Assembly (NCBI GenBank): GCA_034429935.1
Contig: DAOUFJ010000018.1
Coordinates: forward strand, 19,862 to 83,861
Length of the DNA stretch: 64,000 bases
Reading direction: 5' to 3'
Source: Dehalococcoidales bacterium
GTDB taxonomy: Bacteria; Chloroflexota; Dehalococcoidia; Dehalococcoidales; UBA5627
Shown in pieces: positions 17,295-41,713 of this stretch. Below the pieces are notes generated by a model that was not told the DNA's origin, made no database searches, and saw only the letters and a program-made list of their open reading frames with translations. A program made the position numbers and the translations under genes. The number at the start of each line of letters is the position of its first letter. The first letter of the stretch is position 1.

Positions 17295-18893
17295 ATGAGG
17301 TTTTCTTTCTACAATATGACCAACTCAAATACCAAAGGGAATGGTTATCTAATTAAAGATAAATGGTATAAGACTATTGTTCAAACTGCCACGGAAGGCT
17401 TTTCCTTGCTGGATAATATCGGGAAAATTGTAGACGTCAATGATTCCTATTGTAATATGATTGGCTACCATCGAGACGAGCTTCTCTCAATGAGTATACA
17501 GGAAATTGATATTAGATTCCTTGATCAAATCGAGGTATTTGAGGAAGAAATCCGGAAAGTCAAAAAACTCGGCGGTATTGCGAGTGAAGTACAACATAAG
17601 ACCAAGAATGGTCAAATTGTTGATCTTTGGGTTAGTCTTAGATATCTGAATACAAATCCTGGCTTTCTATTCTGCTTTCATAGAGATATTACAGAAAAGA
17701 AGAGATTGCAGCAACAAATTATTGAATCCGAAGAAAGATATCGTGCTCTGATAGAAGTAGGCGACAGAATCGGAGAAGCTATTGTCATGTTGCAGAATAT
17801 TAAAAACATGGAGGGAATGCAGACTTTTGTTAGTGATGAATGGTGTTGTATTACTGGTTATACAAGGGAAGAATTGTTAAAGATGTCTTTTTTTGAAATT
17901 CTGCACCCCAGCTACTGTAAAGATACTCTGGATTGTCACCTTGGTAAAATAAATGGAGAAGATATTCCACGAAAAATCGAAGCGTCTATTATTAGGAAAG
18001 ATGGAAAAGAAATTCCCATAGAATTTACCAGTGCCTTTACCAGTTTTCATGGAAAGAGAGCTATTGTTGCCTATATCAGGGAAATCACTGAACGTAAGAA
18101 GATGGAAACTGAGCTTAAGAAATATCAAGAGAACCTTGAATATCTTGTAAAAGAGCGCACCAACAAGCTGGAAGGGATTATCAAGCAGCGGGTTGAATTT
18201 AATAGAGCTCTGGTACATGAGTTAAAAACGCCTCTCACAGCCATTATAAATTCCAGCGAATTATTGACTCAGCAACGCCGGGAGGAAACGACTCAAAGAT
18301 TAGCCCAAAATATATTTAAGGGGGGCATTTTTCTTAATAATAGAATCGATGAACTTCTCGATGTGATAAGAAGTGAGGTCGGGTCACTATGTGTTAATTG
18401 TAAATCTATTGACCCGATTAAACAAATTCGCGAGGCAGTCGAGGAAATGTCTTCATTAGCCGCGAGAAAAGGGCAATCCATTATTTTGAACATTCCAGAT
18501 GAACTGCCCGAAATCTGGGCTGATAAACAGAGGATGCAGCAGGTTCTATTGAATCTGATTTCCAACGCTATAAAATTTAATTCCGATGAAGGCAGGGTAA
18601 TTATAAGAGCAAGAGAAAAAGATAATTATGTGATTTTCGAGATTGTGGATGAGGGTAAAGGAATAAGTAGCGCAGAAGCGCTGAGGTTGTTTGAACCTTA
18701 TTACCGGAAAGAGAGTGACCGTGATCATCTCAGTGGTTTAGGTCTAGGCTTGTCCCTGTCCAAGAAATTGGTAGAACTCCATAATGGAAAAATATGGTAT
18801 AAAAAACGAGATGGAATTAATGGAAGTATATTTGGTTTTTCGATACCTGTATCAAGTACGGTGGGAGTACAAACGGAGGCAGAAAATGAATGA
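17295..18893 (+). CDS. PAS-domain sensor histidine kinase
   Basis: 532 aa. Two PAS units, H-box VHELKTPLTAIINSSELL, ATPase boxes LISNAIKFN, DEGKGI, GLGLGLS. Visibly more AT-rich than the flanking genes (by eye). Confidence 0.9.
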   Translation: MRFSFYNMTNSNTKGNGYLIKDKWYKTIVQTATEGFSLLDNIGKIVDVNDSYCNMIGYHRDELLSMSIQEIDIRFLDQIEVFEEEIRKVKKLGGIASEVQHKTKNGQIVDLWVSLRYLNTNPGFLFCFHRDITEKKRLQQQIIESEERYRALIEVGDRIGEAIVMLQNIKNMEGMQTFVSDEWCCITGYTREELLKMSFFEILHPSYCKDTLDCHLGKINGEDIPRKIEASIIRKDGKEIPIEFTSAFTSFHGKRAIVAYIREITERKKMETELKKYQENLEYLVKERTNKLEGIIKQRVEFNRALVHELKTPLTAIINSSELLTQQRREETTQRLAQNIFKGGIFLNNRIDELLDVIRSEVGSLCVNCKSIDPIKQIREAVEEMSSLAARKGQSIILNIPDELPEIWADKQRMQQVLLNLISNAIKFNSDEGRVIIRAREKDNYVIFEIVDEGKGISSAEALRLFEPYYRKESDRDHLSGLGLGLSLSKKLVELHNGKIWYKKRDGINGSIFGFSIPVSSTVGVQTEAENE

Positions 18894-19581
18894 TTTGAGC
18901 AAAGTCATCATTATCGAAGATAGCGATGAAATTGTTGAGACCACCTCGCTTACTCTGCAAATACGCTGGCCGAATGTTGAGATCCATACTTCCGATAGCG
19001 GGAAGAAAGGATTGACCATGATAGAGAAACATCATCCATCTATTGTTATCCTTGATTTGGGGCTACCTGATATGAGCGGGTTTGATGTTTTAAAGGATAT
19101 TCGTAGCTTCTCTGATATTCCGGTTTTAATACTGACGGTAAGAGGGGACGAAGCGGACGTAGTGAAGGGGCTGGAGCTGGGTGCCGATGGATATGTTATT
19201 AAGCCCTTCCGGCAGATGGAACTGCTGTCAAGAATAAGAGCTATTCTGCGCAGGCAGGGTGCTATTTATGAGGATAATATAATTGCCGTTGACAACTTTA
19301 GGTTCAATCCCTCCGAGCAGATGGTAACAATTGATGGGAGGCAAATAACACTTACCCGCAGCGAAAATCTTATTCTTTTTAAATTGATTAAAAATCCCAA
19401 TATGGTGATGAGCTACTCACGATTAGCGGAAGCTGTATGGGGTAGCGATTATCCGTGTGCATCTGCCAGTTTAAAAGTACATATACGTCGTCTGCGTCAA
19501 AAAATTGAACGGAATCCGGCTCATCCAACATTCATCCTGACTAAAAGAGGGCTGGGTTACCTGTTTTCTAAAACGAGCTAG
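18886..19581 (+). CDS. OmpR/PhoB-family response regulator (receiver + winged-helix DNA-binding domain)
   Basis: The track ORF starts at 18784. I place the start at ATG 18886 (MNDLSKVIIIEDSDE), which overlaps the kinase stop by 8 nt. Receiver (ILDLGLPDMSG, VIKPF) plus Trans_reg_C (LTRSENLILFKL...VHIRRLRQKIE...LTKRGLGY). Confidence 0.88.
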   Translation: MNDLSKVIIIEDSDEIVETTSLTLQIRWPNVEIHTSDSGKKGLTMIEKHHPSIVILDLGLPDMSGFDVLKDIRSFSDIPVLILTVRGDEADVVKGLELGADGYVIKPFRQMELLSRIRAILRRQGAIYEDNIIAVDNFRFNPSEQMVTIDGRQITLTRSENLILFKLIKNPNMVMSYSRLAEAVWGSDYPCASASLKVHIRRLRQKIERNPAHPTFILTKRGLGYLFSKTS

Positions 19582-19865: not shown

Positions 19866-20267
19866 ATGAAGATATTTATTGCCGATTCCAATAATGAAGC
19901 TATGGAAGGTATGGTATCGATTTTAAACCGACGCCAACCCGATTGGACGGTGGTTATCATGAATTCCGGCAAGCAATGTCTCGATACATTAAGAAACGGC
20001 AGTTGCCCGGATGCATTTATTTTGGGCATACAACTTACCGATATGTCCGGTTTAGAACTGGTCATTAAGATTCGCGATGATTCCGATATGCCTATCATCG
20101 TCTTATCCAGTGATGAAGATATTCATACGCTGGTAGAAACCTTTGATGCGGGGGCCAATGATTATATAGTCAAACCTTTCAATGAGGTTATATTCGTTGC
20201 CCGTTTAAAGGCACTGGTCAGGCGAAGAATATGGAATAGTCAGGCAATTTATAATCAATTGAAGTAA
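19866..20267 (+). CDS. Stand-alone response-regulator receiver
   Basis: The track ORF starts at a TTG at 19776. The likely start is ATG 19866 (MKIFIADSNNEAMEG...). Receiver motifs ILGIQLTDMSGLE and IVKPF, no output domain. Confidence 0.8.
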   Translation: MKIFIADSNNEAMEGMVSILNRRQPDWTVVIMNSGKQCLDTLRNGSCPDAFILGIQLTDMSGLELVIKIRDDSDMPIIVLSSDEDIHTLVETFDAGANDYIVKPFNEVIFVARLKALVRRRIWNSQAIYNQLK

Positions 20268-20381: not shown

Positions 20382-23345
20382 TTGAAAGAAGAAAAAAGAA
20401 AACACACAGAGAATGAAGGGAAAAAGCAATCTAATGAAGTTTCGAGAAGAGACTTTCTGGTTGGTGCCAGCACTGTAGTCGTTGGTGGCGCTATCGGCGC
20501 TGGAATGTTTTCAAGCTGCGATGGAGAAACTGTTACCAAGACGATTGAGACCACTAAGACAGTTGAAAAGACAACGACGTTGGTTGGTAGTGGGGCGGTT
20601 ACCGTAACTGAGACCAAACAGGTGGGAGCTGATGAGACGATAACTTCAACAGTTACTTCCACTAAAATAGAAGGTGGCGTTGAGCCGGCATTTGAGGAAG
20701 AGACAACTGTAATAAAACAAATTAGTCCCGGTGGTATAACCGGAGAGCCTTGCTGCGTTGATGTCAAGAACGGCAAAATAGTCAGGATCAGACCGTTGCA
20801 TTATGACTGGAAGTATACTAAAGATGAACTTGCTGATGCCCTGTGGGCTTATGAGGCCAAAGGCAAGACTTTTGAAGCAGGCATAAAATCACTACCCAGT
20901 TACTTTGCCTTAGCCTATAAAAAGAGGATTTATTCCCCTATTAGAACCAAATATCCGCTACAGAGAGTCGATTGGGAGCCCGGTGGCGGCGACAATGTGA
21001 ATCCGCAGAATCGTGGTAAAAGCAAGTTCAAGAGAATTACTTGGGATGAGGCTACCAGTATAGTCGCCAGCGAAATAAAGAGGGTAAGAGAGACATATGG
21101 TAATTATGCCATATTATGTATAGGAGCAGACGGGCATCACGAGACCAAGAATGTTCATTCCGGCCAGGGTGCTCATATGATGCTTATGAATTTGTGTGGA
21201 GGTTATACCCTCGAGTTCAGGAATGCCGACAGCTGGGAAGGATGGTACTGGGGGGCGATGCATGTATGGGGAACCGGAGAAAACGGGCTTGCGGCTGGGA
21301 ATGCATCAGCAACCGTTACCGGAGACACCATAGAGGTAAACTCTATGCAGACTTCACTTTTCGATACTTCAGAGAACACTGAGATGATTGTGTATACGGG
21401 CTGTGATTATGAGACTACACCCCAGGGATTTGCCGGCCAGTATATGAGCAGAGTGGCGTCTTGGCTGGGAGAATTGGGAATAAAACAGGTATATGTATCG
21501 CCCGAACTGAATTATCAGGGCGCCGCACATCCGGACAAATGGATACCGGTACTGCCCAACACGGATATGTGCTGGCAAATGGCTGTGATATATATCTGGA
21601 TAGTGGAGGATACCTACGACAAAGATTTTGTTGAGACTCATACAATAGGTTTTGATAAGATAAGGGCCTATATCTTGGGAGAAGATGATGGTATTCCCAA
21701 GACGCCAGCGTGGGCGGCACCGAGGTGTGGCATGAAAGAGTGGACGATTAAGGCTCTGGCTAGGCAATGGGCGGCCAAAAAAACGTCAACAGGCCATTAC
21801 TTTGGAAGTCCTATGGCCAGGGGCCCGTATTCGACTGAACCGGCCAGGTGGGAAGCAGTACAGCTAGGAATGCAGGGGATAGGTAAACCGGGTGTCATGC
21901 AACTCTACGGCTCGACGCTGGCTGCACCTCCCCATGTCGGGCCGGCGGTCGGGATGACAATGGCGTTAGGCAGGTATCTGCCATTCTCGGCTACGCCACA
22001 GGTTATCGCCAGGACTCTGGTTCACCGGGCTATTATAGACGGACATTCCGAGCAATGGGGTCTTACCGGATTCATGCCGGTTGACGACCAGTTTATTAAA
22101 TATATCTACCCAATAGCCTCCGATGAGGGAGGTACCGAGATCCATATGGCATGGAGTGAAAAGCCCTGTAATACTGCTTGTTGGAACCATAGTAACAAGT
22201 TCATAGATGCCTTCAGAACCTCTAAGATAGAATGCTATGTCGTTAATCATCAATGGCTTCAGAACGATGCTATATTTGCCGATATAGTATTTCCTGTTAG
22301 CTGCCAGTGTGAGGAAGACGATATATATTCTATCTCGACCCCTTGCTCTGTAGAACTGGCGGGCGTTTGCGTATCGAAAAAGGCTGTAAAACCCATAGGG
22401 GAGTCTAAGAGCGACTACGAGATAGCTGCTGCGGTGTCCAAAAAGTTGGAGGAGTATGGTGGCCAGTATGAAGGTCTGTACGACGCATATACCGAAGACA
22501 TGACTATTGAAGAGAGGATAGAATCGGGCTTTGCGCAGTTTGAACTGGATGACATAATCAGTTGGGAGGATATGCAGGAAAAGCAGTACTGTTTAACTCC
22601 GCTGGTGCCCGGTTGGGAACAAATAAAGCCTACTATGAAATCGTTTTATGACGACCCCGAGTCAAACCCGCTGGATCTGCCATCAGGCAAAATGGAGTTT
22701 TATTCTGATAGATTGGCTACAAGCTTCCCTGATGACAAAGAAAGAGGGCCAATGCCTAAATATGTAATAGGCGGCCCTGAATCTGAAGGTTGGATACATG
22801 ATGAAAGTCTATATGGTGAGAGGGTAAAAAAGTATCCTCTGCTTCTGGAAGCGAACCATCCAAGGTGGAGACATCATCCGCAATGTGATGATATAGCCTG
22901 GTTCAGGGAAATCCCGACTATGAAGATCAAAGGTTACGATGGCTATATGTACGAGCCGGTCTGGATACATCCCACAACTGCTGCAGAGAGGGGCATAGAG
23001 CATGGTGATATCGTTAAAGTATATAACGATAGAGGAATCGAGCTCGGTGGAGCCTATGTAACTGAAAGGATGATCCCCGGAGCAGCACATATGGATCACG
23101 GCGCTGCAGTTGACATGATAACGGATAGAATTAATAGAGGAGGAACTGTCAATCCAATAACACCTGAGATGGGAAGTTCTAAATATTGTTGGGGAATGGC
23201 TGTATCCGGTTTTCTGGTTCAAGTTGAAAAGCTTGATCCGGCGCAGATGGAGGAATGGCGAAAGACTTATCCTGAAGCATTTGCCAGAGATTATGATCCG
23301 GCCTATGGAATTAAATATGATGGTTGGGTTGAAAAGGAGGTATAG
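20382..23345 (+). CDS. Exported molybdopterin (DMSO-reductase-superfamily) oxidoreductase catalytic subunit; TAT signal + lipobox + Thr-rich stalk; pyrogallol-transhydroxylase-like (no FS0 Cys motif)
   Basis: 987 aa. Twin-arginine SRRDFLVG (RR at 20445-20450), hydrophobic region, then MFSSC (Cys46 at 20517-20519). About 65 aa of T/V/E/K-rich linker follows. The molybdopterin fold then starts at CCVDVKNGKIVRIRP without a CxxCxxxC...C cluster motif. C-terminal MopB_CT-like barrel (GDIVKVYNDRGIELGGAYVTERMIPGAAHMDHG). Confidence 0.8.
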   Translation: MKEEKRKHTENEGKKQSNEVSRRDFLVGASTVVVGGAIGAGMFSSCDGETVTKTIETTKTVEKTTTLVGSGAVTVTETKQVGADETITSTVTSTKIEGGVEPAFEEETTVIKQISPGGITGEPCCVDVKNGKIVRIRPLHYDWKYTKDELADALWAYEAKGKTFEAGIKSLPSYFALAYKKRIYSPIRTKYPLQRVDWEPGGGDNVNPQNRGKSKFKRITWDEATSIVASEIKRVRETYGNYAILCIGADGHHETKNVHSGQGAHMMLMNLCGGYTLEFRNADSWEGWYWGAMHVWGTGENGLAAGNASATVTGDTIEVNSMQTSLFDTSENTEMIVYTGCDYETTPQGFAGQYMSRVASWLGELGIKQVYVSPELNYQGAAHPDKWIPVLPNTDMCWQMAVIYIWIVEDTYDKDFVETHTIGFDKIRAYILGEDDGIPKTPAWAAPRCGMKEWTIKALARQWAAKKTSTGHYFGSPMARGPYSTEPARWEAVQLGMQGIGKPGVMQLYGSTLAAPPHVGPAVGMTMALGRYLPFSATPQVIARTLVHRAIIDGHSEQWGLTGFMPVDDQFIKYIYPIASDEGGTEIHMAWSEKPCNTACWNHSNKFIDAFRTSKIECYVVNHQWLQNDAIFADIVFPVSCQCEEDDIYSISTPCSVELAGVCVSKKAVKPIGESKSDYEIAAAVSKKLEEYGGQYEGLYDAYTEDMTIEERIESGFAQFELDDIISWEDMQEKQYCLTPLVPGWEQIKPTMKSFYDDPESNPLDLPSGKMEFYSDRLATSFPDDKERGPMPKYVIGGPESEGWIHDESLYGERVKKYPLLLEANHPRWRHHPQCDDIAWFREIPTMKIKGYDGYMYEPVWIHPTTAAERGIEHGDIVKVYNDRGIELGGAYVTERMIPGAAHMDHGAAVDMITDRINRGGTVNPITPEMGSSKYCWGMAVSGFLVQVEKLDPAQMEEWRKTYPEAFARDYDPAYGIKYDGWVEKEV

Positions 23346-23350
23346 ATTAA

Positions 23351-24163
23351 ATGAAGGCTTTTGTCATAAATGTCAATAAGTGTACAGGGTGTTATTGCTG
23401 CCAGATTGGATGTAAGGATGAGCATTGTGGTAACGATTGGACGCCTTATGCTAAGCCTCAACCGGAGTGGGGGCAGTTCTGGATCAAGTTAAATGAGATT
23501 GAGAGAGGACAAATACCGCAAGTCAAGGTAAGCTATATCCCAATCCTTTGTCAGCACTGTGTAGACGCGCCGTGTATTCAGGCATGTCCTATAGAAGGGG
23601 CTTTGTACACTAGGGATGATGGACTGGTTATTATCGATCCCAAGAAATGCACCGGGTGCCGGAACTGTATTGATGTTTGTCCTTACGATGCTATCTTCTA
23701 TAATGATGCTCTTGCTCTTGCGCAGAAGTGCACTGGCTGTGCGCATATTCTGGACAGGGGATGGCCAATTACGGAACCCAGATGTGTTGATAATTGCCCG
23801 CATGGAGCCATTGTTATAGGTGAAGAGTCTGCTCTGTCCAATTCAATGGTCGGGTCGGAAACACTGCATTCTGAATACGATCTTACCACCAAGGTCCATT
23901 ATATAGGGCTGCCCAAGAGGTTTGTTGCCGGTACTGTTTATGATTCGACTAACAATGAAGTAGTTATCGGTGCTACCTGTACCCTGACTGGAATTGCAGG
24001 ATCTGCGGAAACTACAACAGATGTTTTTGGTGATTTTTGGATTGAAGATTTGAAAGAGGGTGACTTTACGTTAACGATAGCCAGTGGGAGTACGAGTAAA
24101 ACGATAACCGGGAGCACTGTTGATGGAGATATAGGCTTGGGTGATGTAGATATCAACGGGTAG
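23351..24163 (+). CDS. Fe-S electron-transfer (beta) subunit with C-terminal Ig-like/carboxypeptidase-regulatory-like domain
   Basis: 270 aa. Four Cys groups: CTGCYCCQIGC, CQHCVDAPCIQACP, CTGCRNCIDVCP, CTGCAH...CVDNCP. The C-terminal ~80 aa (VAGTVYDSTNNEVVIGATCTLTG...TDVFGDFWIEDLKEGDFTLTI) looks like a CarboxypepD_reg beta-sandwich. Starts 5 nt after the alpha-subunit stop. Confidence 0.85.
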   Translation: MKAFVINVNKCTGCYCCQIGCKDEHCGNDWTPYAKPQPEWGQFWIKLNEIERGQIPQVKVSYIPILCQHCVDAPCIQACPIEGALYTRDDGLVIIDPKKCTGCRNCIDVCPYDAIFYNDALALAQKCTGCAHILDRGWPITEPRCVDNCPHGAIVIGEESALSNSMVGSETLHSEYDLTTKVHYIGLPKRFVAGTVYDSTNNEVVIGATCTLTGIAGSAETTTDVFGDFWIEDLKEGDFTLTIASGSTSKTITGSTVDGDIGLGDVDING

Positions 24164-24171
24164 TTAAGTTA

Positions 24172-24212
24172 TATAAAGGGGGGGAGCGTTTAGGCCCTTC
24201 CCCCCCTTTATA
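24172..24212. other. Intercistronic perfect 14-bp-stem hairpin flanked by 8-bp direct repeats
   Basis: TATAAAGGGGGGGA (24172-24185), a 13-nt loop, then TCCCCCCCTTTATA (24199-24212). TAGTTAAG occurs at 24161-24168 and again at 24211-24218. Confidence 0.7.
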
Positions 24213-24243
24213 GTTAAGAAAATAAGAAAGGATTAAGGTAGCT

Positions 24244-24798
24244 ATGAGCAGTTTTAGAGAATGGATATTTCGAGGCTTGGTTATAATAGCTATTGGTTTA
24301 CTGTTTTTATCGTGGTTTACACCGTGGTGGAATGCTGATGTCCTGTCGATAGGTGGCTCTATTACAATACATCCATGGGGGCTCGAAAGTAACTTGGGGT
24401 ACTTCGCCACGTATATGACCGGTGCCGATATGCCGGTCTGGTTTGCTCCAATGATGTGGATTTATCTGGGATTATGTGTCGCCATGTTATTAGCCAGCTT
24501 CTTTGTAAAAGAAAGAGTGTTTAGCCTTGGCAGGTTCAAGCTTCCATGGAATCGATTACTTATTGGAGTTGCCGGTTTTTCATATATAATCGTTGTTGTT
24601 ACGGCTTTTATTTATGCCTCGATAAGCACTGGTAAGTATGGTATTCAGTTCGTAGGACGCTCGTTTGTCAAGGTCGGGCCAGAGGGGACATATGTGGAGT
24701 CGGGTCTGTTGTGGGGATATTGGCTGGCTTGTGCAGTGGGGCTTTTTCTTGTCCTTCTCGCTTTGGCACGTAACAAGATAGTGGGTAAGCCCAAATAG
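24244..24798 (+). CDS. Uncharacterised 4-5-TM membrane protein (putative anchor subunit of the molybdoenzyme)
   Basis: 184 aa, hydrophobic helices, no family recognised (not NrfD/DmsC-like by eye). Assignment is by operon position only. Confidence 0.5.
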   Translation: MSSFREWIFRGLVIIAIGLLFLSWFTPWWNADVLSIGGSITIHPWGLESNLGYFATYMTGADMPVWFAPMMWIYLGLCVAMLLASFFVKERVFSLGRFKLPWNRLLIGVAGFSYIIVVVTAFIYASISTGKYGIQFVGRSFVKVGPEGTYVESGLLWGYWLACAVGLFLVLLALARNKIVGKPK

Positions 24799-24912
24799 AC
24801 TGATTTGTGAAAATATTCTAGCCAGTAAAAGTCACGAAAATAAGCAGGAGGTTTTTCCAATCCAGTGAATGAAGTGTATTGTATAGTCACACATGTTTAA
24901 GAGGAAGATTAA

Positions 24913-25455
24913 GTGATGGTTGCCCTGTTGAGAAAATTTCACGCGGTGTTTTTCATCACTATACTTATTTTTATAACAGCCTTCCTGCTTGTTATTACGG
25001 ATGATGTTACAAGGGAAAAGTTGAAAGCCAAGCAGGATAAACAAATAGTGGAGATGCTCGAGGGAATATTCCCAGAAGCTAGTTTTTATACAGTTGAGAA
25101 TGATATATATACAATATACAACGACGGTAGGAATGAGATAGGCTATGCCTTTTATGCAGCAGGGAAGGGATGTGGTGGGGAGATTGTTGTTTTTGTCGGT
25201 CTCAAGAACATGGAGACGATACAGGGGATAGTTGTTATCTCACACAAAGAGAGACGATTAAGCGGTTTGGAATCTACTGTAGGACTGGATTTCACTCCGC
25301 TTGTCGCTCAATTTGTTGGTTTAAGAATTGATGATTGTTATCTGGTAAAAAAAGGGGGGCAGGTGGATGGAGTAAGCGGAGCGACTATAAGCTCTACAGC
25401 TCTGGTTGATATTGTTCGTAATGCAGCACTGGAAAAGGTCGCATTGATAGGTTAG
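24913..25455 (+). CDS. Membrane-anchored FMN_bind-domain protein (covalent-flavinylation motif)
   Basis: 180 aa. One N-terminal TM helix, then an RnfG/NosR-type FMN-binding domain ending in DGVSGATISS. The predicted flavinylated Thr158 is encoded at 25384-25386. Confidence 0.8.
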   Translation: MMVALLRKFHAVFFITILIFITAFLLVITDDVTREKLKAKQDKQIVEMLEGIFPEASFYTVENDIYTIYNDGRNEIGYAFYAAGKGCGGEIVVFVGLKNMETIQGIVVISHKERRLSGLESTVGLDFTPLVAQFVGLRIDDCYLVKKGGQVDGVSGATISSTALVDIVRNAALEKVALIG

Positions 25456-25472
25456 ATTGTAAAACTGTGCAA

Positions 25473-25536
25473 GGTCGCCCAGAAAATCTGGGATATAATG
25501 AAAGAACAGGCTCCCAAGGTTTTCGGGGATTTGTAA
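25473..25536 (+). pseudogene. thyX: Orphan 3'-terminal fragment of a thyX gene (last 20 codons + stop)
   Basis: 64 nt align without gaps to thyX 16881-16944, with 54/64 identical by my count. The fragment encodes VAQKIWDIMKEQAPKVFGDL*; thyX encodes VAQKIADIMKVQAPKVFGDL*. Homology stops at a TAG at 25454-25456 upstream, and no upstream thyX body is present. Confidence 0.8.
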
Positions 25537-25564
25537 ATTTGAAAGGCAGTATTAAATAACATTC

Positions 25565-25923
25565 ATCATCCTTCATCCAATTGCAACTGGATGACATCCC
25601 GACTAGTCGAGACTTATGATAAAGCTTCCTTCGGGGGAGGCCTTTAAACGTTGTAATTGCGAGATGTTATAATTTCCGTTCGTCCTGAGTCCCGATTCAT
25701 CGGGAAAGGATTTTAGCTGAAATCTGCCCAACGTTACCGCCGCTATGGTTCGACAGGCTCACCACGAACGGCTCTCGTTGTGTCATTTCCGTAAAGAAAA
25801 AAATGTCATTGTCATGCTGAGTTCGTGAGGGACGAACTCAACATCTGGGGTGGGGGATATTTATAATAATACTTTTTCCACCCCCAAGATTCTTCGGTCG
25901 TTACACTCCCTCCAGAATGACAG
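25565..25923. repeat. Intergenic array of modular palindromic repeats (array R2)
   Basis: Contains ...GGATGACA, TCCCGACTAGTCGAGAC (25597-25613), GTCCTGAGTCCCGATTCATCGGGAAAGG, CGCCGCTATGGTTCGACAGGCTCACCACGAACGG, GTCATGCTGAGTTCGTGAGGGACGAACTCAACATCTGGGGTGGGGGA (25811-25857) and GATTCTTCGGTCGTTACACTCCCTCCAGAATGACAG (25888-25923). Confidence 0.8.
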
Positions 25924-25958
25924 TAAGTTTGGATTTTTTTAAAAACAGTATAAATCCC

Positions 25959-32750: not shown

Positions 32751-32768
32751 TTGCAGTCAGTTCGTTAT

Positions 32769-33164
32769 CTATTTATCGTCTGCCGGGTACGAGCCGTCTT
32801 CGTCGTGCACTTCATCGCCTCTCAAGGCCGGATAGAAAGTACATACCATGTGCATATCCTCGGTTCCTCCGCGCAGGATATGCCTGTCATGGTTGTTGAG
32901 AGCATACAAAGTCCCGGCAGTAATGCTATGGGTAATCCCGGTAGCCAGGTCCTCGATACTGCCGTTGCCGGATACGCAGTACACTGCCTCGAGGTGGTTT
33001 TTATACCATATCTTCGATTCGGTGCCGGCTTTTATGATGGTATCGTTTACCGAAAAACCCATGCCGTCTTTTTTGTTTATCAGCCTGCGGCTTTTCCAGT
33101 TGCCGTGCGGGTCTGCGACATCGTTGTCCGTATTTATAATCTCGTCAAGCTTGCGAATTATCAA
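32769..33164 (-). CDS. ectC: L-ectoine synthase
   Basis: 131 aa cupin. MIIRKLDEI...NWKSRRL...GMGFSVNDTIIKAGTE...WYKNHLEAVYCVSG is typical EctC. Last gene of the ectABC order. Confidence 0.92.
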   Translation of the reverse strand: MIIRKLDEIINTDNDVADPHGNWKSRRLINKKDGMGFSVNDTIIKAGTESKIWYKNHLEAVYCVSGNGSIEDLATGITHSITAGTLYALNNHDRHILRGGTEDMHMVCTFYPALRGDEVHDEDGSYPADDK

Positions 33165-34440
33165 TTATTCCCAGTCCTCCGTCATCGTTATTTTTAGCTT
33201 CCATCAAAGCAACTATGGATTCCTCTATAATATCCAGTCCTTTTACGAGTAGATTCTCTTCGATTATCAGCGGCGGCAGGAATTTCAGTACGCTGTGTTC
33301 GGCTCCGGCCAGCTCTATCATAAGTCCCCTGCAGAAACTTTCCCTGGATACCTGGCGCGCCATTCCCTTGGGCGCTATATCAAGACCGTATATCATGCCG
33401 CGTCCGCGCACCTTGCAATTGAGTTCGGGATATTTATCGGCGATAATTTTCAACCTGTCCCGCATAATCTTTTCCTTGGTTTTTATCAGTTCGGCGAGTT
33501 CGTCGGTCTTCCAGTATTCGAAGAGCTTTGTGGCGGCTATAAAAGCAAGGTTGTTGCCGCGGAAGGTGCCGGTATGCTCGCCCGGCTTCCACTGGTCGAG
33601 TTCGGGGCGTACCAGTACCAGGGCGAGGGGCAGCCCGCCGCCGATTGATTTAGACATGGTGATGATATCAGGTGATATACCTGCTTCTTCGAAGCTGAAA
33701 AAGGTTCCGGTGCGCCCGTTTCCTACCTGTATATCGTCGACGATAAGCAGAATATCGAATTCGCGGCAGATATGTTCTATTTCAACCAGCCATTCCTTGC
33801 TGGCTACGTTGACTCCGCCTTCGGCCTGTACCGTTTCCAGGATAATGGCGGCCGGCAGGTCGATGCCGCTGCTTCCGTCTTCTAAGAACCGGCGCAGGTA
33901 TTGAGCGGTGTCGACTCCTTCGCCGAAATAGCCGTCGAACGGCATGAATGAAACGTTGGAGCGGTTGATGAACGATTCGTCGCGGTAGAAGGCGTTGCCG
34001 GTTACCGCCATCGACCCCATGGTCAGCCCGTGAAAACCGTTGGTGAAAGAGATAACATTGGAACGGCCTTTTACCATGCGCGCCAGTTTGAGCGCCGTTT
34101 CAACCGCATTGGTTCCCGTCGGTCCTGTAAACTGCACTTTGTAATCCATGTGCCTCGGCTGCAGAATATCGTAGTAAAATCTTTCCAGGAAGTGTTTCTT
34201 GGCAGTGGTAGCCTGGTCTAAACTGTGTACTATTCCGTCCTGTTGCAGGTATTCTATGAGTGCCTGGTTTACGGTCGGGTTGTTATGCCCGTAGTTAAGC
34301 ACGCCTGCCCCGGCGAAGAAATCGATGTATTCTTTTTCCTGTTCGTCGTAGAGCAGGGCACCTTTCGCTCTGGTAAAAATGGTCGGGAACGACCTGACAT
34401 AGCTTCTGACCTGTGATTCCACCTGATCGAAAATTCTCAT
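33145..34440 (-). CDS. ectB: Diaminobutyrate--2-oxoglutarate transaminase
   Basis: 431 aa class-III aminotransferase. MRIFDQVESQVRSYVRSFP..., DDIQVGNGRTGTFFSFE, and the PLP-Lys context MSKSIGGGLP. Sits between ectA and ectC. Confidence 0.92.
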   Translation of the reverse strand: MRIFDQVESQVRSYVRSFPTIFTRAKGALLYDEQEKEYIDFFAGAGVLNYGHNNPTVNQALIEYLQQDGIVHSLDQATTAKKHFLERFYYDILQPRHMDYKVQFTGPTGTNAVETALKLARMVKGRSNVISFTNGFHGLTMGSMAVTGNAFYRDESFINRSNVSFMPFDGYFGEGVDTAQYLRRFLEDGSSGIDLPAAIILETVQAEGGVNVASKEWLVEIEHICREFDILLIVDDIQVGNGRTGTFFSFEEAGISPDIITMSKSIGGGLPLALVLVRPELDQWKPGEHTGTFRGNNLAFIAATKLFEYWKTDELAELIKTKEKIMRDRLKIIADKYPELNCKVRGRGMIYGLDIAPKGMARQVSRESFCRGLMIELAGAEHSVLKFLPPLIIEENLLVKGLDIIEESIVALMEAKNNDDGGLGIIDNSQA

Positions 34441-34442
34441 TT

Positions 34443-34955
34443 TTATTTATCTCCTTTTAATTTGAATGGTCCGATTCTGAGCAACCTCTCTTCTTCATGC
34501 CCATTTCCTAAAAGGTCACTTGAGAAGCATTCGCTCTCTTTACAGTCGGCTTCGTTTTTTTCAATTATCCTTTGAAATAATGCGCGTGACTCCTTGTTTG
34601 AGGGGGTAATTGTCGTTTCCAGATAACTGAAGCCGTTTTCAGCAGCCAGCAGTATAAGACTATCGAGTAAGCCGGTACCAACCCCGAGTTTGTGAAAATC
34701 TGGGTCAACACCTATCTGCCATATAAAGAGGGTATCGGTGAAATGTGGGTGAGGATATGCCGATACAAAACCGATTGTTTTCTTGTCGGCCTCTGCTACC
34801 AGGCAATATTTATTAAAATGTGAACAAAGTAGCAGGTAGCAATAGCGGGAGTTGAGGTCTAGCGGGGGACAGCTTTTAGCAATTTCGTATACTGCCGGGC
34901 CGTCTGTTTTTACAGCGTTTCGTATGCTGAAATTTATTTTCTTTTTATTATTCAT
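34443..34955 (-). CDS. ectA: L-2,4-diaminobutyrate N-gamma-acetyltransferase
   Basis: 170 aa GNAT (VDPDFHKLGVGTGLL). First gene of an ectA-ectB-ectC arrangement. Confidence 0.85.
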   Translation of the reverse strand: MNNKKKINFSIRNAVKTDGPAVYEIAKSCPPLDLNSRYCYLLLCSHFNKYCLVAEADKKTIGFVSAYPHPHFTDTLFIWQIGVDPDFHKLGVGTGLLDSLILLAAENGFSYLETTITPSNKESRALFQRIIEKNEADCKESECFSSDLLGNGHEEERLLRIGPFKLKGDK

Positions 34956-35523
34956 AATATGGCAATAAAGGACTTATTTTATATTAAATCTGCATACTCG
35001 AATTTAAACCGGCATCCGTTTAATGAAACGGGGCAGGGTTATTAATCTTTTACTCTCCGGGCATAATATCTTTTACGATATGATTTAACGGTATATGCCT
35101 GGAAATGAGTAAAAGATTCAGCGGTAAGGGATTTACGGGTTGGAGAGTTATGCAGGGAAGGTCAACACATGATATTACTTATCTTGGAATTTCAACAGGA
35201 GTCAGATTTATTTCCCCCGGATTATTTTGGGGCTATAGGGTTATCACACATTGATTTTAATATTAAATTTTAAGTCTTTTATCGAACTTATATTAACTCC
35301 TTATAATATGGAAAAACCTTGCTTTTCGGGAGCGCCGTACAAATCTGTTTTATTTAGCTTTAATTGATGGTTTTCCGCTTCTTTTACGGGGGCATTGTAG
35401 CATGTATCCCCTGAAAAACACAAATATTCAATGTATTTTTACTGCCTGATAATGATATATCGGGTGGAATCAAGTATAATGGACTTGTACAGGAGTTAAT
35501 ACTTTACAGGGTTAACAACAGAA

Positions 35524-36123
35524 ATGTCAGGTATATTATGTATCGGCGGCAGTCCCAGGGCAGGCGGCAATTCGGATATTTTGATGGAGCAGTTCATCAA
35601 GGGAGTAACGTGCCGGGATTTTGCCGCAGAAGCCATTCAGCTTCGAGACTATCGGTTCCAATCGTGCAAGGGTTGTGAGAAATGCCGCAAAGACGGGAGT
35701 TGCACCGGAATTCAGGATGACATGCAGCTTGTTTATCCTAAAATCATTGCAAGCAGTGGTTTGATACTGGTTTCCCCGGTGCATAACTATAATATTACGG
35801 CTATTATGAAATCATTTATAGACAGGCTGTATTGCTTCTATAATTTCGATGGTGAACGTCCCGGCGAATGGTCCAGCCGCCTGGCGAATCAGGGTAGGAA
35901 AGCGGTAATCGCTGCAATCGGGGAGCAGGTCAGTTATGAAGATAGCGGGGTATTGCTGGCATTACAGGCGATGAGGCTTCCGCTGGAAGCCCTGGGTTAT
36001 CAGGTCATCGGGGAATTGCCGGTTACCGGTGTTTTTCATAAGGGAAAGATATTGCAGTATCCGGAAATACTTAATCAAGCAGAGCGTATGGGGAGGCAAT
36101 TAAAGGATGATATGACCGGCTGA
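35524..36123 (+). CDS. Iron-sulfur flavoprotein (Isf-like NADPH-dependent FMN reductase family)
   Basis: 199 aa flavodoxin-like protein (ILCIGGSPRAGGNSD) with the compact Isf-type Cys motif CKGCEKCRKDGSC. Confidence 0.75.
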   Translation: MSGILCIGGSPRAGGNSDILMEQFIKGVTCRDFAAEAIQLRDYRFQSCKGCEKCRKDGSCTGIQDDMQLVYPKIIASSGLILVSPVHNYNITAIMKSFIDRLYCFYNFDGERPGEWSSRLANQGRKAVIAAIGEQVSYEDSGVLLALQAMRLPLEALGYQVIGELPVTGVFHKGKILQYPEILNQAERMGRQLKDDMTG

Positions 36124-36480
36124 TATATCTCTAATCACTGTCAATTTATAATTGATAGGACGCTTGTAATTGTTCACAATATATACACTATTTATCTTCT
36201 TTTATATAAAAAAACAGGTTATTAATATTGACTGGTCCTATAGAACTATGTTAAGGTAGGTTAAGATGATTAACACAAATCAATATAAATTCCAATATTA
36301 TTTCCCGTAACCGGAAATAATAACTGAATAATAAAACCTCTGATTATTTCAATTATCCATTTCATAATTTACTAATACATTAATCTCTTTTTCAATGCCC
36401 TTATTATTATTCTATCCCGATTAGTTTTTACCTGTTGTCATATTATGCCTATTCTATTTCTCACTATTTTTATAAAAATT

Positions 36481-37686
36481 ATGAATATTAAAATTAAAGC
36501 AGAAAATCTTGTAAAAATTTATGGCGATAAAACCGATAAAGCTCTTGAGCTTTTTAATCAGGGGCTTTCGCGGGCTGAAATCCAAAAAGAAACAGGCCTT
36601 ACAGTAGGTGTAGCCGGAGTCAATTTCGAGATTACCGAAGGGGAAATCTTCGTCGTTATCGGTCTTTCCGGCAGTGGTAAGTCTACCCTGTTACGCTGTA
36701 TCAACGGGCTGCTTATGCCCACCAGCGGTTCACTTTTAGTGGATGGTAAGGCTGTAGAAAAGTTAAATGATAAGGAATTACGCAAACTCCGCGGTGAAAA
36801 GATCAGTATGGTATTTCAGCATTTTGCTTTGCTGCCTAACCGTTCTATTGTCGATAATGTCGCTTTCGGGCTTGAACTGAGAGGTGCTCCGCTGGAAGAA
36901 AGGAGAGAAAAAGCACGGGAAGCGCTGATTAAAGTAGGGCTGGAGGAATGGAACGACAAATTTCCCAATGAACTCAGCGGCGGGATGAAACAGAGGGTGG
37001 GGTTGGCACGTGCCCTGGTTATGGATTCGGATATTATGCTGATGGATGAACCCTTCAGCGCGCTCGATGCACTGATACGCGCGGAAATGCAGGAGGAGTT
37101 GATAACCCTGCAGCGTGAAATTAAAAAGACGGTGGTTTTTGTGACCCATGACCTCGATGAAGCGCTGCGTCTCGGCGATAGGATTGCTATCATGCGTGAC
37201 GGCGCTATCGAACAAATCGGCACTGCCGATGAAATCCTTTCGAATCCGGCAAACGAATATGTCGAGAAATTCCTGCAGGGCATCGATGTGTCCAAGATAC
37301 TGGATGCCAACAGTATTTCAAAGTGGCCGAGGGAAGTCATCCGGGAAACGGAGGGAGTATCCGTTGCATTGCATCGTATGAAAAAGGTGGATACGGATTA
37401 TCTTTTTGTGTTGGGTGCCAGGAATAAACTGGTTGGAATGATACTGCAAGAAGACGTTTTAAGACTGGCTAAGGATAAACAGACAAGTATCAAAGATATT
37501 ATAAAAGAAACGAGTACCGTCCAGTCCGGCACAATTATGAGAGACGTATATCCCGAACTGCGTAATGCCGAGAAAGACCTGGCGGTTGTCGATGATAGCG
37601 GACGTTTCCTGGGAGTGATAACCCACAGTATCCTGCTGATGACACTGGATGAGAGGAAAGGAGGTGACGGGGTTGCCAAATCTTGA
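36481..37686 (+). CDS. opuAA: Glycine betaine/proline betaine ABC transporter ATPase with tandem CBS domains
   Basis: Walker A GLSGSGKST, signature LSGGMKQRVGLARAL, Walker B IMLMDEPFSALD, C-terminal CBS pair. The track ORF starts at 36445; I prefer ATG 36481 (MNIKIKAENLVKIYG). Confidence 0.9.
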   Translation: MNIKIKAENLVKIYGDKTDKALELFNQGLSRAEIQKETGLTVGVAGVNFEITEGEIFVVIGLSGSGKSTLLRCINGLLMPTSGSLLVDGKAVEKLNDKELRKLRGEKISMVFQHFALLPNRSIVDNVAFGLELRGAPLEERREKAREALIKVGLEEWNDKFPNELSGGMKQRVGLARALVMDSDIMLMDEPFSALDALIRAEMQEELITLQREIKKTVVFVTHDLDEALRLGDRIAIMRDGAIEQIGTADEILSNPANEYVEKFLQGIDVSKILDANSISKWPREVIRETEGVSVALHRMKKVDTDYLFVLGARNKLVGMILQEDVLRLAKDKQTSIKDIIKETSTVQSGTIMRDVYPELRNAEKDLAVVDDSGRFLGVITHSILLMTLDERKGGDGVAKS

Positions 37687-38584
37687 AATACCCAAACTGC
37701 CTATAGGCGATGCCATCGAATGGTTTGTCAGGTGGTTGATTGATAATCTTTCGGTGATATTCGATTTCATCAGCGATGTTCTGAAGGCGGTAACAGGGGC
37801 ATTCGGCGATGCATTGTTGGCGATTCCCATTTTAATTTTCATAGTTATCACCGGTTTATTGATATGGTTAGTGACAAGTAAAACCACGGCTGTTTTAAGC
37901 GCTATCGGATTAGCTCTGATATGGAATATCGGTTTATGGCCAGAACTTATAGATACATTCGTTCTTGTCGTTATAGCTGTTGCGATTGCCATTGTAATCG
38001 GTATTCCTACCGGTATCTTGATGACCCGCAGTAAAAAATTCGAAGCAATAATGAGGCCGATTCTGGACTTTATGCAGACAATGCCTCCTTTTGTTTATCT
38101 TATTCCGGCAATACTGCTCTTCGGCACAGGGGTTGTGCCGGCGCTTTTCGCTACTATTATCTTTGCTGCTCCTCCTCCTATACGTCTTACATATCTTGGT
38201 ATTACCCAGGTTCCGTTTGAAATGAAGGAGATGGCTGTAGCTTTCGGAGCGAATGACCGGCAAGTTCTCACCAAAGTCGAGTTGCCGCTTTCTCTTCCCA
38301 GTATAATGGCGGGAGTGAATCAGTGCATTATGCTTGGTATATCGATGGTGGTTATTGCCTCGATGATTGGGTTTGGCGGTCTTGGTTCTGTAGTAGTACG
38401 GGCGCTTAATATGGTTAACTTGTCTCTCGGTTTTGAAAGCGGTTTGGCTATAGTTATACTGGCAATGATTTTGGATAGGGTTAGCCGGAATATCGGTTCC
38501 GGTAAGGAAATTCCTGCCGGCAGAATAACCAGGTATTTAAGAGTGCGACATGAAAAAAGGTCGCTTGATAAACAAAAAACATGA
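37673..38584 (+). CDS. opuAB: Glycine betaine ABC transporter permease
   Basis: BPD_transp_1 permease of ProW/OpuAB type (PIGDAIEWFVRWL..., EMKEMAVAFGANDRQVLTKVELP). The start is uncertain: TTG 37673, 7 nt after GGAGG, is preferred over the track start at 37649. Confidence 0.85.
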   Translation: MPNLEIPKLPIGDAIEWFVRWLIDNLSVIFDFISDVLKAVTGAFGDALLAIPILIFIVITGLLIWLVTSKTTAVLSAIGLALIWNIGLWPELIDTFVLVVIAVAIAIVIGIPTGILMTRSKKFEAIMRPILDFMQTMPPFVYLIPAILLFGTGVVPALFATIIFAAPPPIRLTYLGITQVPFEMKEMAVAFGANDRQVLTKVELPLSLPSIMAGVNQCIMLGISMVVIASMIGFGGLGSVVVRALNMVNLSLGFESGLAIVILAMILDRVSRNIGSGKEIPAGRITRYLRVRHEKRSLDKQKT

Positions 38585-38654
38585 GAAAGGGGGTGGTGCT
38601 TAATAGCACAATTGCCATACAGGCAACAAATACTATTAAACATGGAGGATATAA

Positions 38655-39521
38655 ATGTTAAAGAAAATTCATTATTTTATTTTAGCAATGATAATGATGG
38701 TTGTCATGCTTGCCGGTTCGGCAAGCGGTTGTGCCACGGAAGATAAAACTATTAAGCTTGTCTATGTTCAGTGGTCTTGTGCCGAAGCCGAGACGCATCT
38801 GGCTGAAGTTATACTGAAAGATATGGGCTACGAAGTGGAGAAAAGCATGGTCGGGGCAGGTGTTATGTGGGCTGCTGTAGCCGATGGTGATGAGGATGCT
38901 TTTACTACTGCATGGTTGCCATATACCCATCAATCTTATTGGGAAGAGTATGGCGACGATGTCGTTAAGCTTGGCACTCTTTACGAAGGAGCCAAGATAG
39001 GGCTTGTTGTCCCCAGTTATGTGACCATCAATTCCATAGCTGAAATGAAAGATTATGAAGAAGAATTCGATGGCCGTATTGTAGGTATCGATTCAGGTGC
39101 AGGTATTATGCAAGCTACACTTGAACAAGCTATGCCTGACTATGGTTTGGAAGATTGGGATCTTGTCGAATCCAGTGAAGCTGCAATGATGGCAGAACTT
39201 GAAAGAGCTATCCATGCAGGTGAATGGATTGCTATAACCGGATGGGCTCCGCATTGGATGTTCTTCAATTATGATCTTAAATTCCTTGAAGATCCCGAAG
39301 AAAGTTATGGCGGGAGTGAACAGATCGTTATTATAGGCAGAGAGGGTTTCGAGGAGGATTTTCCCGATGCGGCGGAATTCTTCGCAAACTTCAAGCTTAC
39401 CAGTGCTCAGCTCGGCGAAGTAATGTACATGATAAATGTCGATAAAATGGACCCGTCCGAAGCGGCTCAGAAGTGGATAGATGATAATCCGGATGTCGTT
39501 GCTACCTGGAGAACCGTATAA
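38655..39521 (+). CDS. opuAC: Glycine betaine-binding lipoprotein
   Basis: 288 aa. Signal peptide with lipobox LAGSASGC. OpuAC/ProX-type fold motifs (WSCAEAETH..., TTAWLPYTH). Confidence 0.85.
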   Translation: MLKKIHYFILAMIMMVVMLAGSASGCATEDKTIKLVYVQWSCAEAETHLAEVILKDMGYEVEKSMVGAGVMWAAVADGDEDAFTTAWLPYTHQSYWEEYGDDVVKLGTLYEGAKIGLVVPSYVTINSIAEMKDYEEEFDGRIVGIDSGAGIMQATLEQAMPDYGLEDWDLVESSEAAMMAELERAIHAGEWIAITGWAPHWMFFNYDLKFLEDPEESYGGSEQIVIIGREGFEEDFPDAAEFFANFKLTSAQLGEVMYMINVDKMDPSEAAQKWIDDNPDVVATWRTV

Positions 39522-40125: not shown

Positions 40126-40139
40126 ATAATCCTCATAAG

Positions 40140-41699: not shown

Positions 41700-41713
41700 A
41701 GTATTATCTTAAA

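Follow-up and report, generated by a model that had tools for sequence, protein, structure and literature searches.

Two molybdoenzymes, the pyrogallol-phloroglucinol transhydroxylase AthL/BthL of Pelobacter acidigallici (PDB 4V4C) and the resorcinol hydroxylase RhLS of Azoarcus anaerobius, are the characterised members of the Ser-ligated RhL/PgtL lineage of the dimethyl sulfoxide (DMSO) reductase superfamily, and a review of that superfamily lists both as cytoplasmic (PMC10100899). AthL-like genes of Chloroflexi and Dehalococcoidia have likewise been read as cytoplasmic enzymes that catabolise pyrogallol by fermentation (PMC3971608, PMC4959651). We analyzed an operon at positions 20382-25455 of a 64,000-nt stretch of DNA from a Dehalococcoidales bacterium (hereafter, the window), which encodes an AthL-like catalytic subunit (alpha) predicted to be exported, a BthL-like iron-sulfur subunit (beta), a membrane protein with four transmembrane (4-TM) helices and a flavin mononucleotide (FMN)-binding protein of the FMN_bind family. 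An earlier reading of the letters alone (the sequence-only reading) had likened alpha and beta to AthL/BthL, counted the resorcinol hydroxylase in the same family and placed the Pelobacter enzyme in the cytoplasm; the last two points agree with the review.

The locus shares with AthL/BthL an alpha subunit that lacks the FS0 cluster and has an AthL-type domain 1 and a Ser/Asp/His active site, as well as a beta subunit of ~270 aa with an immunoglobulin (Ig)-like third domain. However, AthL is cytoplasmic, whereas alpha carries a signal for twin-arginine translocation (Tat) as well as a lipobox and a stalk; in BthL the clusters number three, FS4 being absent, compared with four in the beta of the window; AthL contains a Tyr560 loop that alpha does not; and AthL/BthL has neither a membrane nor a flavoprotein partner. 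RhLS, which carries out net redox chemistry on a phenol, is set apart by its description only, as cytoplasmic and with no flavoprotein or claudin-like partner described. The type III reductases (DorA, TorA, MtsZ and BisC) are the next-closest group and resemble alpha in being FS0-less and Ser-ligated, with DorA and TorA exported through Tat, but they are monomeric, fed by multihaem cytochromes and devoid of an iron-sulfur beta.

The operon consists of four open reading frames (ORFs) on one strand, separated by gaps of 5, 80 and ~115 nt. All four exist as the sequence-only reading described them, and because they are long and their domain matches strong, chance is not a concern. In this architecture, which we regard as very probably correct as described, an AthL/RhL-lineage enzyme appears to be joined to a module for flavin-based extracytosolic electron transfer and to a previously undescribed scaffold. 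Our main interpretation, to which we assign a probability of about 0.6, is that the operon specifies a redox enzyme, inducible and tethered at the outer face of the cytoplasmic membrane, that acts as a reductase. The literature searched yielded no account of an exported AthL-like enzyme that has an FMN_bind or 4-TM partner, although work in subscription journals may hold one.

The predicted exported molybdoenzyme and its iron-sulfur partner

The alpha gene (20382..23345, + strand; 987 aa) starts with TTG, has a GGAG ribosome-binding site upstream and encodes an AthL-like molybdoenzyme of bis-MGD (bis[molybdopterin guanine dinucleotide]) type, with the Pfam domains AhtL-like_1st (PF21423, 28.6 bits against a cutoff of 27), Molybdopterin (PF00384) and Molydop_binding (PF01568). 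The FS0 motif CxxCxxxC...C is absent, as previously noticed: besides Cys46, the only cysteines among the first 260 residues are those at positions 124, 125 and 246. When alpha was compared with all PDB sequences, the top match was AthL (4v4c_A, E = 3.4e-93, 316 bits), followed by reductases of DMSO or of trimethylamine N-oxide (TMAO) at 160-215 bits (DorA, 215). A Foldseek search with the alpha model also placed 4v4c_A first (E = 2.4e-65, template-modelling (TM) score 0.83), with MtsZ, DorA and TorA next (E ~1e-50 to 1e-54, TM scores 0.83-0.88). Acetylene hydratase was a weak match in the PDB sequence search (E 5e-7). Identity with the catechol dehydroxylases of the Eggerthella and Gordonibacter type was rejected, since that clade is reported to cluster with acetylene hydratase, separate from AthL (PMC7028382).

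In an alignment of 122 sequences (the window alpha, AthL and the 120 nearest homologues), alpha and AthL were 34.7% identical. The homologues are themselves 48-64% identical to alpha, and in a distance-based neighbour-joining tree of the same set (50 bootstraps) AthL was the outgroup to all 120 of them. Alpha was not grouped with a characterised clade, in keeping with the sequence-only reading of it as an unassigned molybdoenzyme. At E < 1e-20 the family comprises at least 3,391 clusters, spread over metagenome-assembled genomes labelled Dehalococcoidia, Desulfobacterales, Actinomycetota and others. In four homologues that lack a signal peptide (P0033, P0051, P0060 and P0065), the molybdoenzyme is fused to an N-terminal extension that bears a pair of zinc-finger motifs of C2H2-like type (F.CP....EF..FA.LQ.H....H and CPYD.L.FDTL.AL..HV).

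The N-terminus of alpha (MKEEKRKHTENEGKKQSNEVSRRDFLVGASTVVVGGAIGAGMFSSC) contains a twin-arginine signal, a hydrophobic region and a lipobox, MFSSC, that ends at Cys46 (20382..20519, +). SRRDFL occupies residues 21-26 (SRRDFLVG, 21-28) and the hydrophobic region residues 25-43, and the Tat-signal model TIGR01409 (NCBIfam) scores 19.2 bits against a cutoff of 16.7. The sequence M-F-S-S-C46 agrees with the PROSITE-type lipobox pattern. The anchor would be joined to the catalytic body by a flexible stalk rich in Thr, Val, Glu and Lys (residues 47-100; 20520..20681, +): residues 47-118 (72 aa) include 19 Thr, 10 Glu, 9 Val and 6 Lys, and the conserved body begins with EPAFEEE at residue 101, so that the stalk measures ~55-70 aa. 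In the AlphaFold model, the predicted local distance difference test (pLDDT) score is <50 over residues 1-101 and the fold is confident thereafter (mean 82.7; predicted TM (pTM) score 0.83). Motif positions and composition thus reproduce the signal, the lipobox and the ~65-aa stalk that had been claimed for this 987-aa protein.

A signal of the form [ST]RRxF[LI] is present in 48 of the 120 nearest homologues and absent from the remaining 72. Among the 48, 41 have L-[SAT]-[SG]-C at the same spacing; in the other seven, the lipobox is replaced by an uncleaved-looking hydrophobic segment (AITYPLVAGK), with the Thr/Val-rich stalk kept. A similar plan is found elsewhere in the window. In a Peripla_BP_2 (B12/iron-type) solute-binding protein (56036-57118), the lipobox VTGC precedes a ~55-aa stalk rich in Thr and Ser, and the gene for this protein heads a B12-type ATP-binding cassette (ABC) importer and cobalamin salvage cluster (BtuR, CbiB, aminotransferase and CobQ) that extends to 63234; the OpuAC and CrtC-like proteins of the window also bear lipoboxes. 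Because these proteins share the lipobox and stalk plan, a lipid anchor with a Thr-rich tether appears to be the routine design of this organism for exported proteins. The TIGR01409 score, the 41-48 homologues among 120 and the lipoproteins of the window all support the earlier prediction that alpha would be exported and tethered outside the membrane.

The active site of alpha can be aligned with that of AthL. Here, AthL His144, Asp174, Ser175, Trp176 and Glu177 correspond to alpha His252, Asp283, Ser284, Trp285 and Glu286, all kept in 119-120 of the 120 homologues. The sequence-only reading had left the molybdenum ligand to be chosen among Ser, Cys and Asp, and the alignment with AthL Ser175 points to Ser284 (codon 21231..21233, +, within NADSWEGW) as the probable ligand. 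The roles of these AthL residues (Ser175 as Mo ligand, Asp174, His144 and Tyr560) are reportedly those given by Messerschmidt et al. 2004. The Tyr560 loop of AthL is gapped in 117 of the 120 homologues and unconserved in alpha; AthL Arg153, like Tyr560 part of the co-substrate site, is also unconserved, with Gly261 at that position in alpha.

The beta gene (23351..24163, +; 270 aa) encodes a ferredoxin-type protein with 16 cysteines, enough for four [4Fe-4S] sites (C11/14/17/21, C67/70/75/79, C100/103/106/110 and C127/130/145/149), and an Ig-like CarboxypepD_reg domain at residues 192-258. Pfam and the cysteine positions confirm in this respect the earlier account of a partner with four cysteine groups and a C-terminal beta-sandwich. 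The top PDB match of beta was BthL (E = 7.6e-43), in an alignment that spans residues 4-264 and includes the Ig-like domain. Both subunits thus find their best PDB matches in AthL/BthL by sequence, and alpha does so by fold as well, which upholds the AthL/BthL-type architecture first proposed. Beta has no signal peptide and therefore would be exported together with alpha.

Four of these cysteines are missing from BthL, namely the last of group II and all but the last of group III, whereas beta has all of them. By NarH/DmsB numbering, we take the set missing from BthL to be that of the distal cluster, FS4, and in proteins of the NarH/DmsB type FS4 is the distal cluster that contacts the membrane partner. 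All 16 cysteines are present in the window beta and in 8 of 10 betas from loci with a Tat-type alpha, and the other two lack only the second cysteine of group III. In signal-less loci, 45 of 57 betas also have 16 cysteines and six show the BthL pattern. Because beta retains all 16 cysteines including those of FS4, its complete wire points to net electron exchange rather than to redox-neutral transhydroxylation. Taken together, the catalytic core appears to be AthL-like, the co-substrate apparatus of transhydroxylation appears to be missing from alpha, and a cluster for electron exit or entry is predicted in beta.

The membrane protein, the flavoprotein and the sister operons

The third gene (24244..24798, +) encodes a 184-aa protein of an unannotated family with no match in Pfam or NCBIfam. 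An exhaustive profile search of 1.84 billion representatives returned only 207 clusters, all of ~185-200 aa. Across 77 members, Pro64 is the sole invariant residue and Trp28, Trp29, Gly111 and Gly138 are conserved in >90%, with no conserved His or Cys. Transmembrane prediction and the AlphaFold model (pLDDT 95.2, pTM 0.88) give four helices; of the earlier description as an unrecognised protein with four to five such helices, the first part therefore stands and the count is to be corrected to four. In the model, loops 1 and 3 form a five-stranded sheet, which is predicted to be extracellular because it lies opposite the Lys/Arg-rich loop 2 and the termini.

In a Foldseek comparison with the PDB, this protein gave weak matches to the tetraspans TARP, claudin, Cav-gamma, GARLH and DUOXA1 (E ~2e-4 to 3e-3, TM scores 0.35-0.54). 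Claudins, TARP, Cav-gamma and DUOXA1 have, as the model predicts here, four TM helices and an extracellular sheet formed by loops 1 and 3, and their known members are non-catalytic scaffolds or auxiliary subunits. The protein of the operon differs from claudins in being bacterial and only 8-20% identical, so that the likeness is at the level of the fold only. From the model we infer that it would be a docking scaffold and not an electron conduit. A role in passing electrons through haem or quinol was judged unlikely, given the lack of a conserved His or Cys among the 77 members and the scaffold-type fold. At locus L096, a copy 50% identical to that of the window lies 3' of the gene for a Tat-signal FAD_binding_2 flavoprotein and 5' of a NapH-like gene. 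Because this copy adjoins such a flavoprotein, the scaffold probably serves exported redox enzymes of differing classes and is not specific to alpha-beta.

The fourth gene (24916..25455, +; likelier start ATG at 24916, 179 aa) encodes an FMN_bind protein (PF04205, 50.2 bits against a cutoff of 22) whose only TM helix lies at the N-terminus, behind Arg and Lys residues. Its DGVSGATIS motif has SGAT at residues 155-158 and the Thr158 codon, ACT, at 25384-25386, which matches exactly the single-TM FMN_bind protein previously described. The RnfG models fall below their cutoffs (NF041840, 74 versus 230; TIGR01947, 60.5 versus 102), and the gene lies outside any rnf operon, 3' of the molybdoenzyme genes. 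The protein is 40-41% identical to RnfG of true apbE-rnfCDGEAB operons of related genomes (L092 and L093) and resembles RnfG in its length, its plan of a single TM helix plus FMN_bind and its TGAT/SGAT site. However, it is dedicated to operons with alpha, beta and the membrane protein, one copy in each. We classify it as an RnfG paralogue. The site [ST]GAT is kept in five of six operon-linked FMN_bind copies. In the copy at L091:9001-9528, TRAT is found in its place; this copy may lack flavinylation or contain a sequence error.

Extracytosolic flavinylation systems also combine carriers flavinylated in the ApbE manner with multi-paralogue arsenals of secreted reductases, each specific for its substrate (Light 2019; Meheust 2021, PMC8238504; Little 2023 preprint). 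The likeness to such systems noted in the sequence-only reading is borne out by a predicted SGAT-bearing FMN_bind protein outside the membrane that is co-conserved with Tat-bearing alphas. The clients described for these systems are, however, flavin reductases, the 4-TM scaffold is not described there, and the main text of the flavinylation survey (PMC8238504) contains no word starting with 'molyb'.

In 12 independent loci (the window, L081/L090, L082, L083, L088, L089, L091, L094, L095, L098, L099 and L101; the alpha call of L089 is N-terminally incomplete), the membrane gene was found directly 3' of a Tat-bearing alpha-beta pair, and eight of the 12 also have an FMN_bind gene. Among these, L088, L089, L095, L098, L099 and L101 were added by a search from the membrane-protein side; the metagenome scan for this protein used a narrower alignment, the broader one being too diverse. 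At L103, a 186-aa unannotated protein occupies the position of the membrane gene. The membrane gene thus lies 3' of every Tat-bearing alpha examined, and the FMN_bind gene is present at most loci that reach far enough. A profile scan of genome contigs yielded signal-less alphas only and served as a negative control: neither accessory gene was found, by family hidden Markov model and iterated search, at 80 genome loci with signal-less alpha-beta. Both genes are thus co-conserved with the Tat-bearing pairs, as the sequence-only reading required of its interpretation, and are probably real partners of exported alpha-beta.

The recurrent gene order is receiver, alpha, beta, an optional lipoprotein, the 4-TM protein, optional accessories and FMN_bind (L081/L090, L082, L083, L091, L094 and L103). 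The paralogous operon L090 is on the same 258,866-bp contig as the proteins of the window, and the L082 and L103 operons are 45 kb apart on one 1.5-Mb contig. Paralogous operons each have their own receiver, membrane protein and FMN_bind gene, with differing sensor kinases beside them. The source genome and one related genome would accordingly each contain at least two or three such operons, a multiplicity for which the arsenals of reductive dehalogenases, and of reductases in gut bacteria, offer an analogy.

Several genes of the sister operons have particular features. An extra gene between beta and the membrane protein (L082:10791-11357 and L083:10904-11479), absent from the window, encodes a Sec-type lipoprotein that combines a lipobox with a Thr-rich stalk (~80 aa) and a beta-rich domain (~90 aa). 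A recurrent protein of ~315-377 aa (L082:12735-14932, L083:14233-15189, L088:4762-5709, L091:8000-8992, L094:6937-7893 and L099:6204-7286) has three beta-sandwich-like repeats (IKNIS...A.F.AVFYD.EGNILDTV), no signal peptide and weak DUF3124/DUF3426 matches, and no homologue of it was found in the window. Genes for B12-binding radical S-adenosylmethionine (SAM) and Peptidase_U32 proteins lie in or beside sister operons (L081:4806-6494, L090:7323-9011, L082:15951-16877, L103:12459-15298, L091:5611-7916 and L083:16724-16997), and L103 also encodes a CxxCxxCC protein. UbiU/UbiV, which are O2-independent hydroxylases, belong to the U32 family, and these neighbours may hint at the processing of an aromatic substrate or a cofactor. 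The paralogous operon L090 is adjoined by hypABCDEF, hycI and genes for an uptake hydrogenase of the [NiFe] type that includes a cytochrome-b subunit (L090:9756-18540), a possible electron-donor system that would be quinone-linked.

Candidate modules for electron input were also found beside sister operons. NapH-like and FMN_bind genes lie side by side at L101; the NapH-like protein of L089 has CX3CP motifs together with ferredoxin motifs at its C-terminus; and at L094, FMN_bind is followed by a Tat-signal NrfC-like gene and then NrfD. A NapH-like protein together with FMN_bind would have the domain content of NosR and RdhC/PceC, split over two genes. In NosR, RdhC (PceC) and NapH systems, an exoplasmic SGAT-bearing FMN_bind domain likewise serves an exported reductase, L101 being the split version. 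Compared with NosR and RdhC, however, the window encodes the FMN_bind half only, as an RnfG paralogue, and its client is a molybdoenzyme rather than NosZ or a corrinoid dehalogenase. By analogy with Dehalococcoides, in which the many RdhAB rely on a single complex, the input module of the window genome would be encoded elsewhere and possibly shared.

Proposed mechanism and competing explanations

In the mechanism that we propose, the folded, cofactor-loaded alpha-beta dimer would leave through Tat in the hitch-hiker manner of DmsAB, alpha would be lipidated at Cys46, and the dimer would dock on the extracellular sheet of the 4-TM scaffold. ApbE would attach FMN covalently to Thr158 of the RnfG paralogue. 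Electrons would enter this FMN from a membrane module encoded elsewhere (NapH-like or NrfCD in the sister operons), and the covalent FMN would exchange them with the distal FS4 of beta. From FS4 they would reach, through three further clusters, Mo-bis-MGD, with Ser284 as ligand and Asp283 and His252 in acid-base roles, where the enzyme would reduce an external substrate as a terminal reductase. The reductase direction is favored because the partners are NapH and NrfCD and the scaffold is common to a secreted FAD_binding_2 protein, and because the context is anaerobic, with Rnf, an Ech/Hyf-type hydrogenase and the uptake hydrogenase beside L090. A hydroxylated aromatic is favored as the substrate because the AthL-type His/Asp/Ser site is conserved and because sister operons repeatedly contain U32-family and B12-binding radical-SAM genes, but the aromatic substrate is the least secure part of the model and is held with low confidence.

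Several observations weigh against this interpretation. The Tat-bearing alphas were monophyletic in 0 of 50 neighbour-joining bootstraps, so that a single origin of the exported alphas is unsupported, and the closest catalytic domains include signal-less proteins (e.g. P0004 at 64% identity). FS4 also appears not to be specific to exported forms, as 16-cysteine betas are the majority among signal-less pairs too. The lipobox of alpha departs from the family consensus L-S-[SG]-C through Phe at position -3. The claudin fold match of the modelled membrane protein is weak (TM score 0.35-0.54), and at L100 and L102 its gene has no adjacent reductase. No NapH-like or NrfCD gene was found in the 64-kb window, leaving the operon without a transmembrane electron carrier, and no TorD/DmsD-type chaperone gene was found nearby. 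An apbE gene is likewise absent from the 64-kb window; in the related genomes L092 and L093, apbE adjoins rnf, and because the window contains rnfC (690-2018, - strand, at its left edge, with the rest of the rnf operon probably beyond the end), ApbE and a true RnfG would be expected in the genome. For the clade as a whole, both substrate and electron direction are what we infer from sequence.

The same architecture could also run oxidatively, as an extracytoplasmic hydroxylase or dehydrogenase like RhLS that takes electrons from a phenolic donor, uses water as the oxygen source and passes the electrons to the membrane pool. The active-site His, Asp and Ser are kept, a four-cluster wire is usable both ways, and modules of the NrfD type are reversible in some complexes; the resorcinol hydroxylase, moreover, is the other characterised AthL/RhL member and is net oxidising (PMC10100899). 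However, NapH-like and NrfCD partners, and a Tat-FAD_binding_2 protein that shares the scaffold, typify delivery to extracytoplasmic reductases. The context is strictly anaerobic, with genes for Rnf and for an energy-converting hydrogenase nearby, no high-potential acceptor system was seen in the window, and moving electrons from phenol hydroxylation into low-potential flavins would be thermodynamically unattractive. We consider the oxidative direction unlikely. A reductase of S- or N-oxides (DMSO, TMAO or methionine sulfoxide) with an unusual iron-sulfur beta and anchor is suggested by the Joint Genome Institute (JGI) labels of many homologues (TMAO reductase or S/N-oxide reductase-like), by a fold likeness to DorA, TorA and MtsZ close to that of AthL (TM scores 0.83-0.88) and by the best NCBIfam models for alpha, which are bisC_fam, dmsA and TorA. 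Ectoine and betaine genes in the window suggest a marine or saline setting where DMSO and TMAO occur, and DMSO reduction was earlier proposed for marine Dehalococcoidia (PMC4959651). Yet all NCBIfam models of S/N-oxide reductases score far under their cutoffs (TIGR00509 (bisC_fam), 285 versus 1017; dmsA, 258 versus 778; TIGR02164 (TorA), 231 versus 1465; NF011682, 243 versus 909), whereas the AthL-specific domain 1 passes its Pfam cutoff and AthL outscores DorA by 316 to 215 bits. In addition, DorA Tyr114 and Trp116 align to, and are replaced by, Asp250 and His252 in alpha; DorA and TorA have no BthL-like beta; and the recurrent U32 and B12 radical-SAM genes hint at organic-substrate chemistry. 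An S- or N-oxide substrate therefore seems quite improbable.

The retained His, Asp and Ser, and the rank of AthL/BthL as the closest solved relatives, would also fit a redox-neutral pyrogallol-phloroglucinol transhydroxylase that has moved outside the cell, with the FMN_bind and membrane genes as mere neighbours. This we regard as highly improbable. FS4 is present, unlike in BthL; identity with AthL is only ~35%; the loop of Tyr560, a residue that reportedly contacts the co-substrate, is gone from the homologues; and only the exported forms show strict co-conservation with the membrane protein and the modules for electron transfer. Because three defining features, namely a site in the cytoplasm, a beta with three clusters and the co-substrate loop, are all wanting here, the enzyme of the operon is probably not a transhydroxylase in the functional sense, and an extracytoplasmic terminal reductase is the interpretation that we retain.

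Regulators, neighbouring genes and biological meaning

Upstream of the operon are three regulatory genes on the + strand, and Pfam and NCBIfam domain matches verify the PAS kinase, OmpR regulator and extra receiver that had been reported there. The sensor histidine kinase (17316..18893, gene call from L085; the ORF opens at 17295) has two PAS domains, HisKA and HATPase_c and no hydrophobic or TM segment, and is thus soluble and cytoplasmic. The OmpR-type response regulator (18886..19581, gene call in L085; receiver plus Trans_reg_C) shares 8 nt with the end of the kinase ORF. A single-domain receiver (19866..20267; Response_reg, 1.1e-19; the ORF opens at 19776, with the start most likely at ~19866) lies directly 5' of alpha, and a homologous receiver is found 5' of alpha in L081, L082, L083, L090, L091, L094 and L103. 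Together, the kinase, the regulator and the lone receiver would put expression of the operon under signal control. Two more large multi-PAS histidine kinases (638 and 903 aa; 2581-8036, -) are encoded within 15 kb of the PAS kinase of the operon.

Elsewhere in the window, a six-gene module at 39598-46739 (-) encodes an energy-converting [NiFe] hydrogenase of the Ech/Hyf/Mbh type or a complex-I-like module, with Oxidored_q6, a fused 30K/49K subunit, two Proton_antipo_M proteins and NADHdh. An ectoine synthesis set (acetyltransferase and aminotransferase by Pfam, synthase from the L085 gene table), followed by a glycine-betaine OpuA-type ABC transporter, occupies 32751-39521; these genes suggest a saline or marine habitat. 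A scan of the window for promoter-like sites (24 versus 21.4 expected) and terminator-like sites (10 versus 6.6 expected) was uninformative, Rfam and tRNA searches over the window gave no match, and the intergenic region 25456-25958 contains only two short inverted repeats.

The operon adds three elements to flavin-based extracytosolic electron transfer: a molybdoenzyme client, a carrier that is an RnfG paralogue and a claudin-like scaffold common to an exported flavoprotein. For the AthL-like family, a sizeable subset (48 of the 120 nearest homologues) is predicted to be exported and wired for net electron transfer. The blanket label "pyrogallol hydroxytransferase" is probably wrong for much of the family, because even most signal-less relatives retain the fourth iron-sulfur cluster that BthL lacks. 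Marine and aquifer sediments harbour non-dehalogenating Dehalococcoidia in great abundance, and the operons bear on the question of what these bacteria respire. We tentatively raise the possibility that these operons are an unrecognised respiratory arsenal of sediment and subsurface Dehalococcoidia, comparable to their rdhA arsenals, in which many surface-tethered, substrate-specific AthL-type enzymes with their own sensors, split NosR-like wiring (a NapH-like protein and an RnfG-derived flavoprotein) and a claudin-fold scaffold shared with exported flavoprotein reductases would reduce natural hydroxylated aromatics, such as those released by the breakdown of polyphenols and humic matter.

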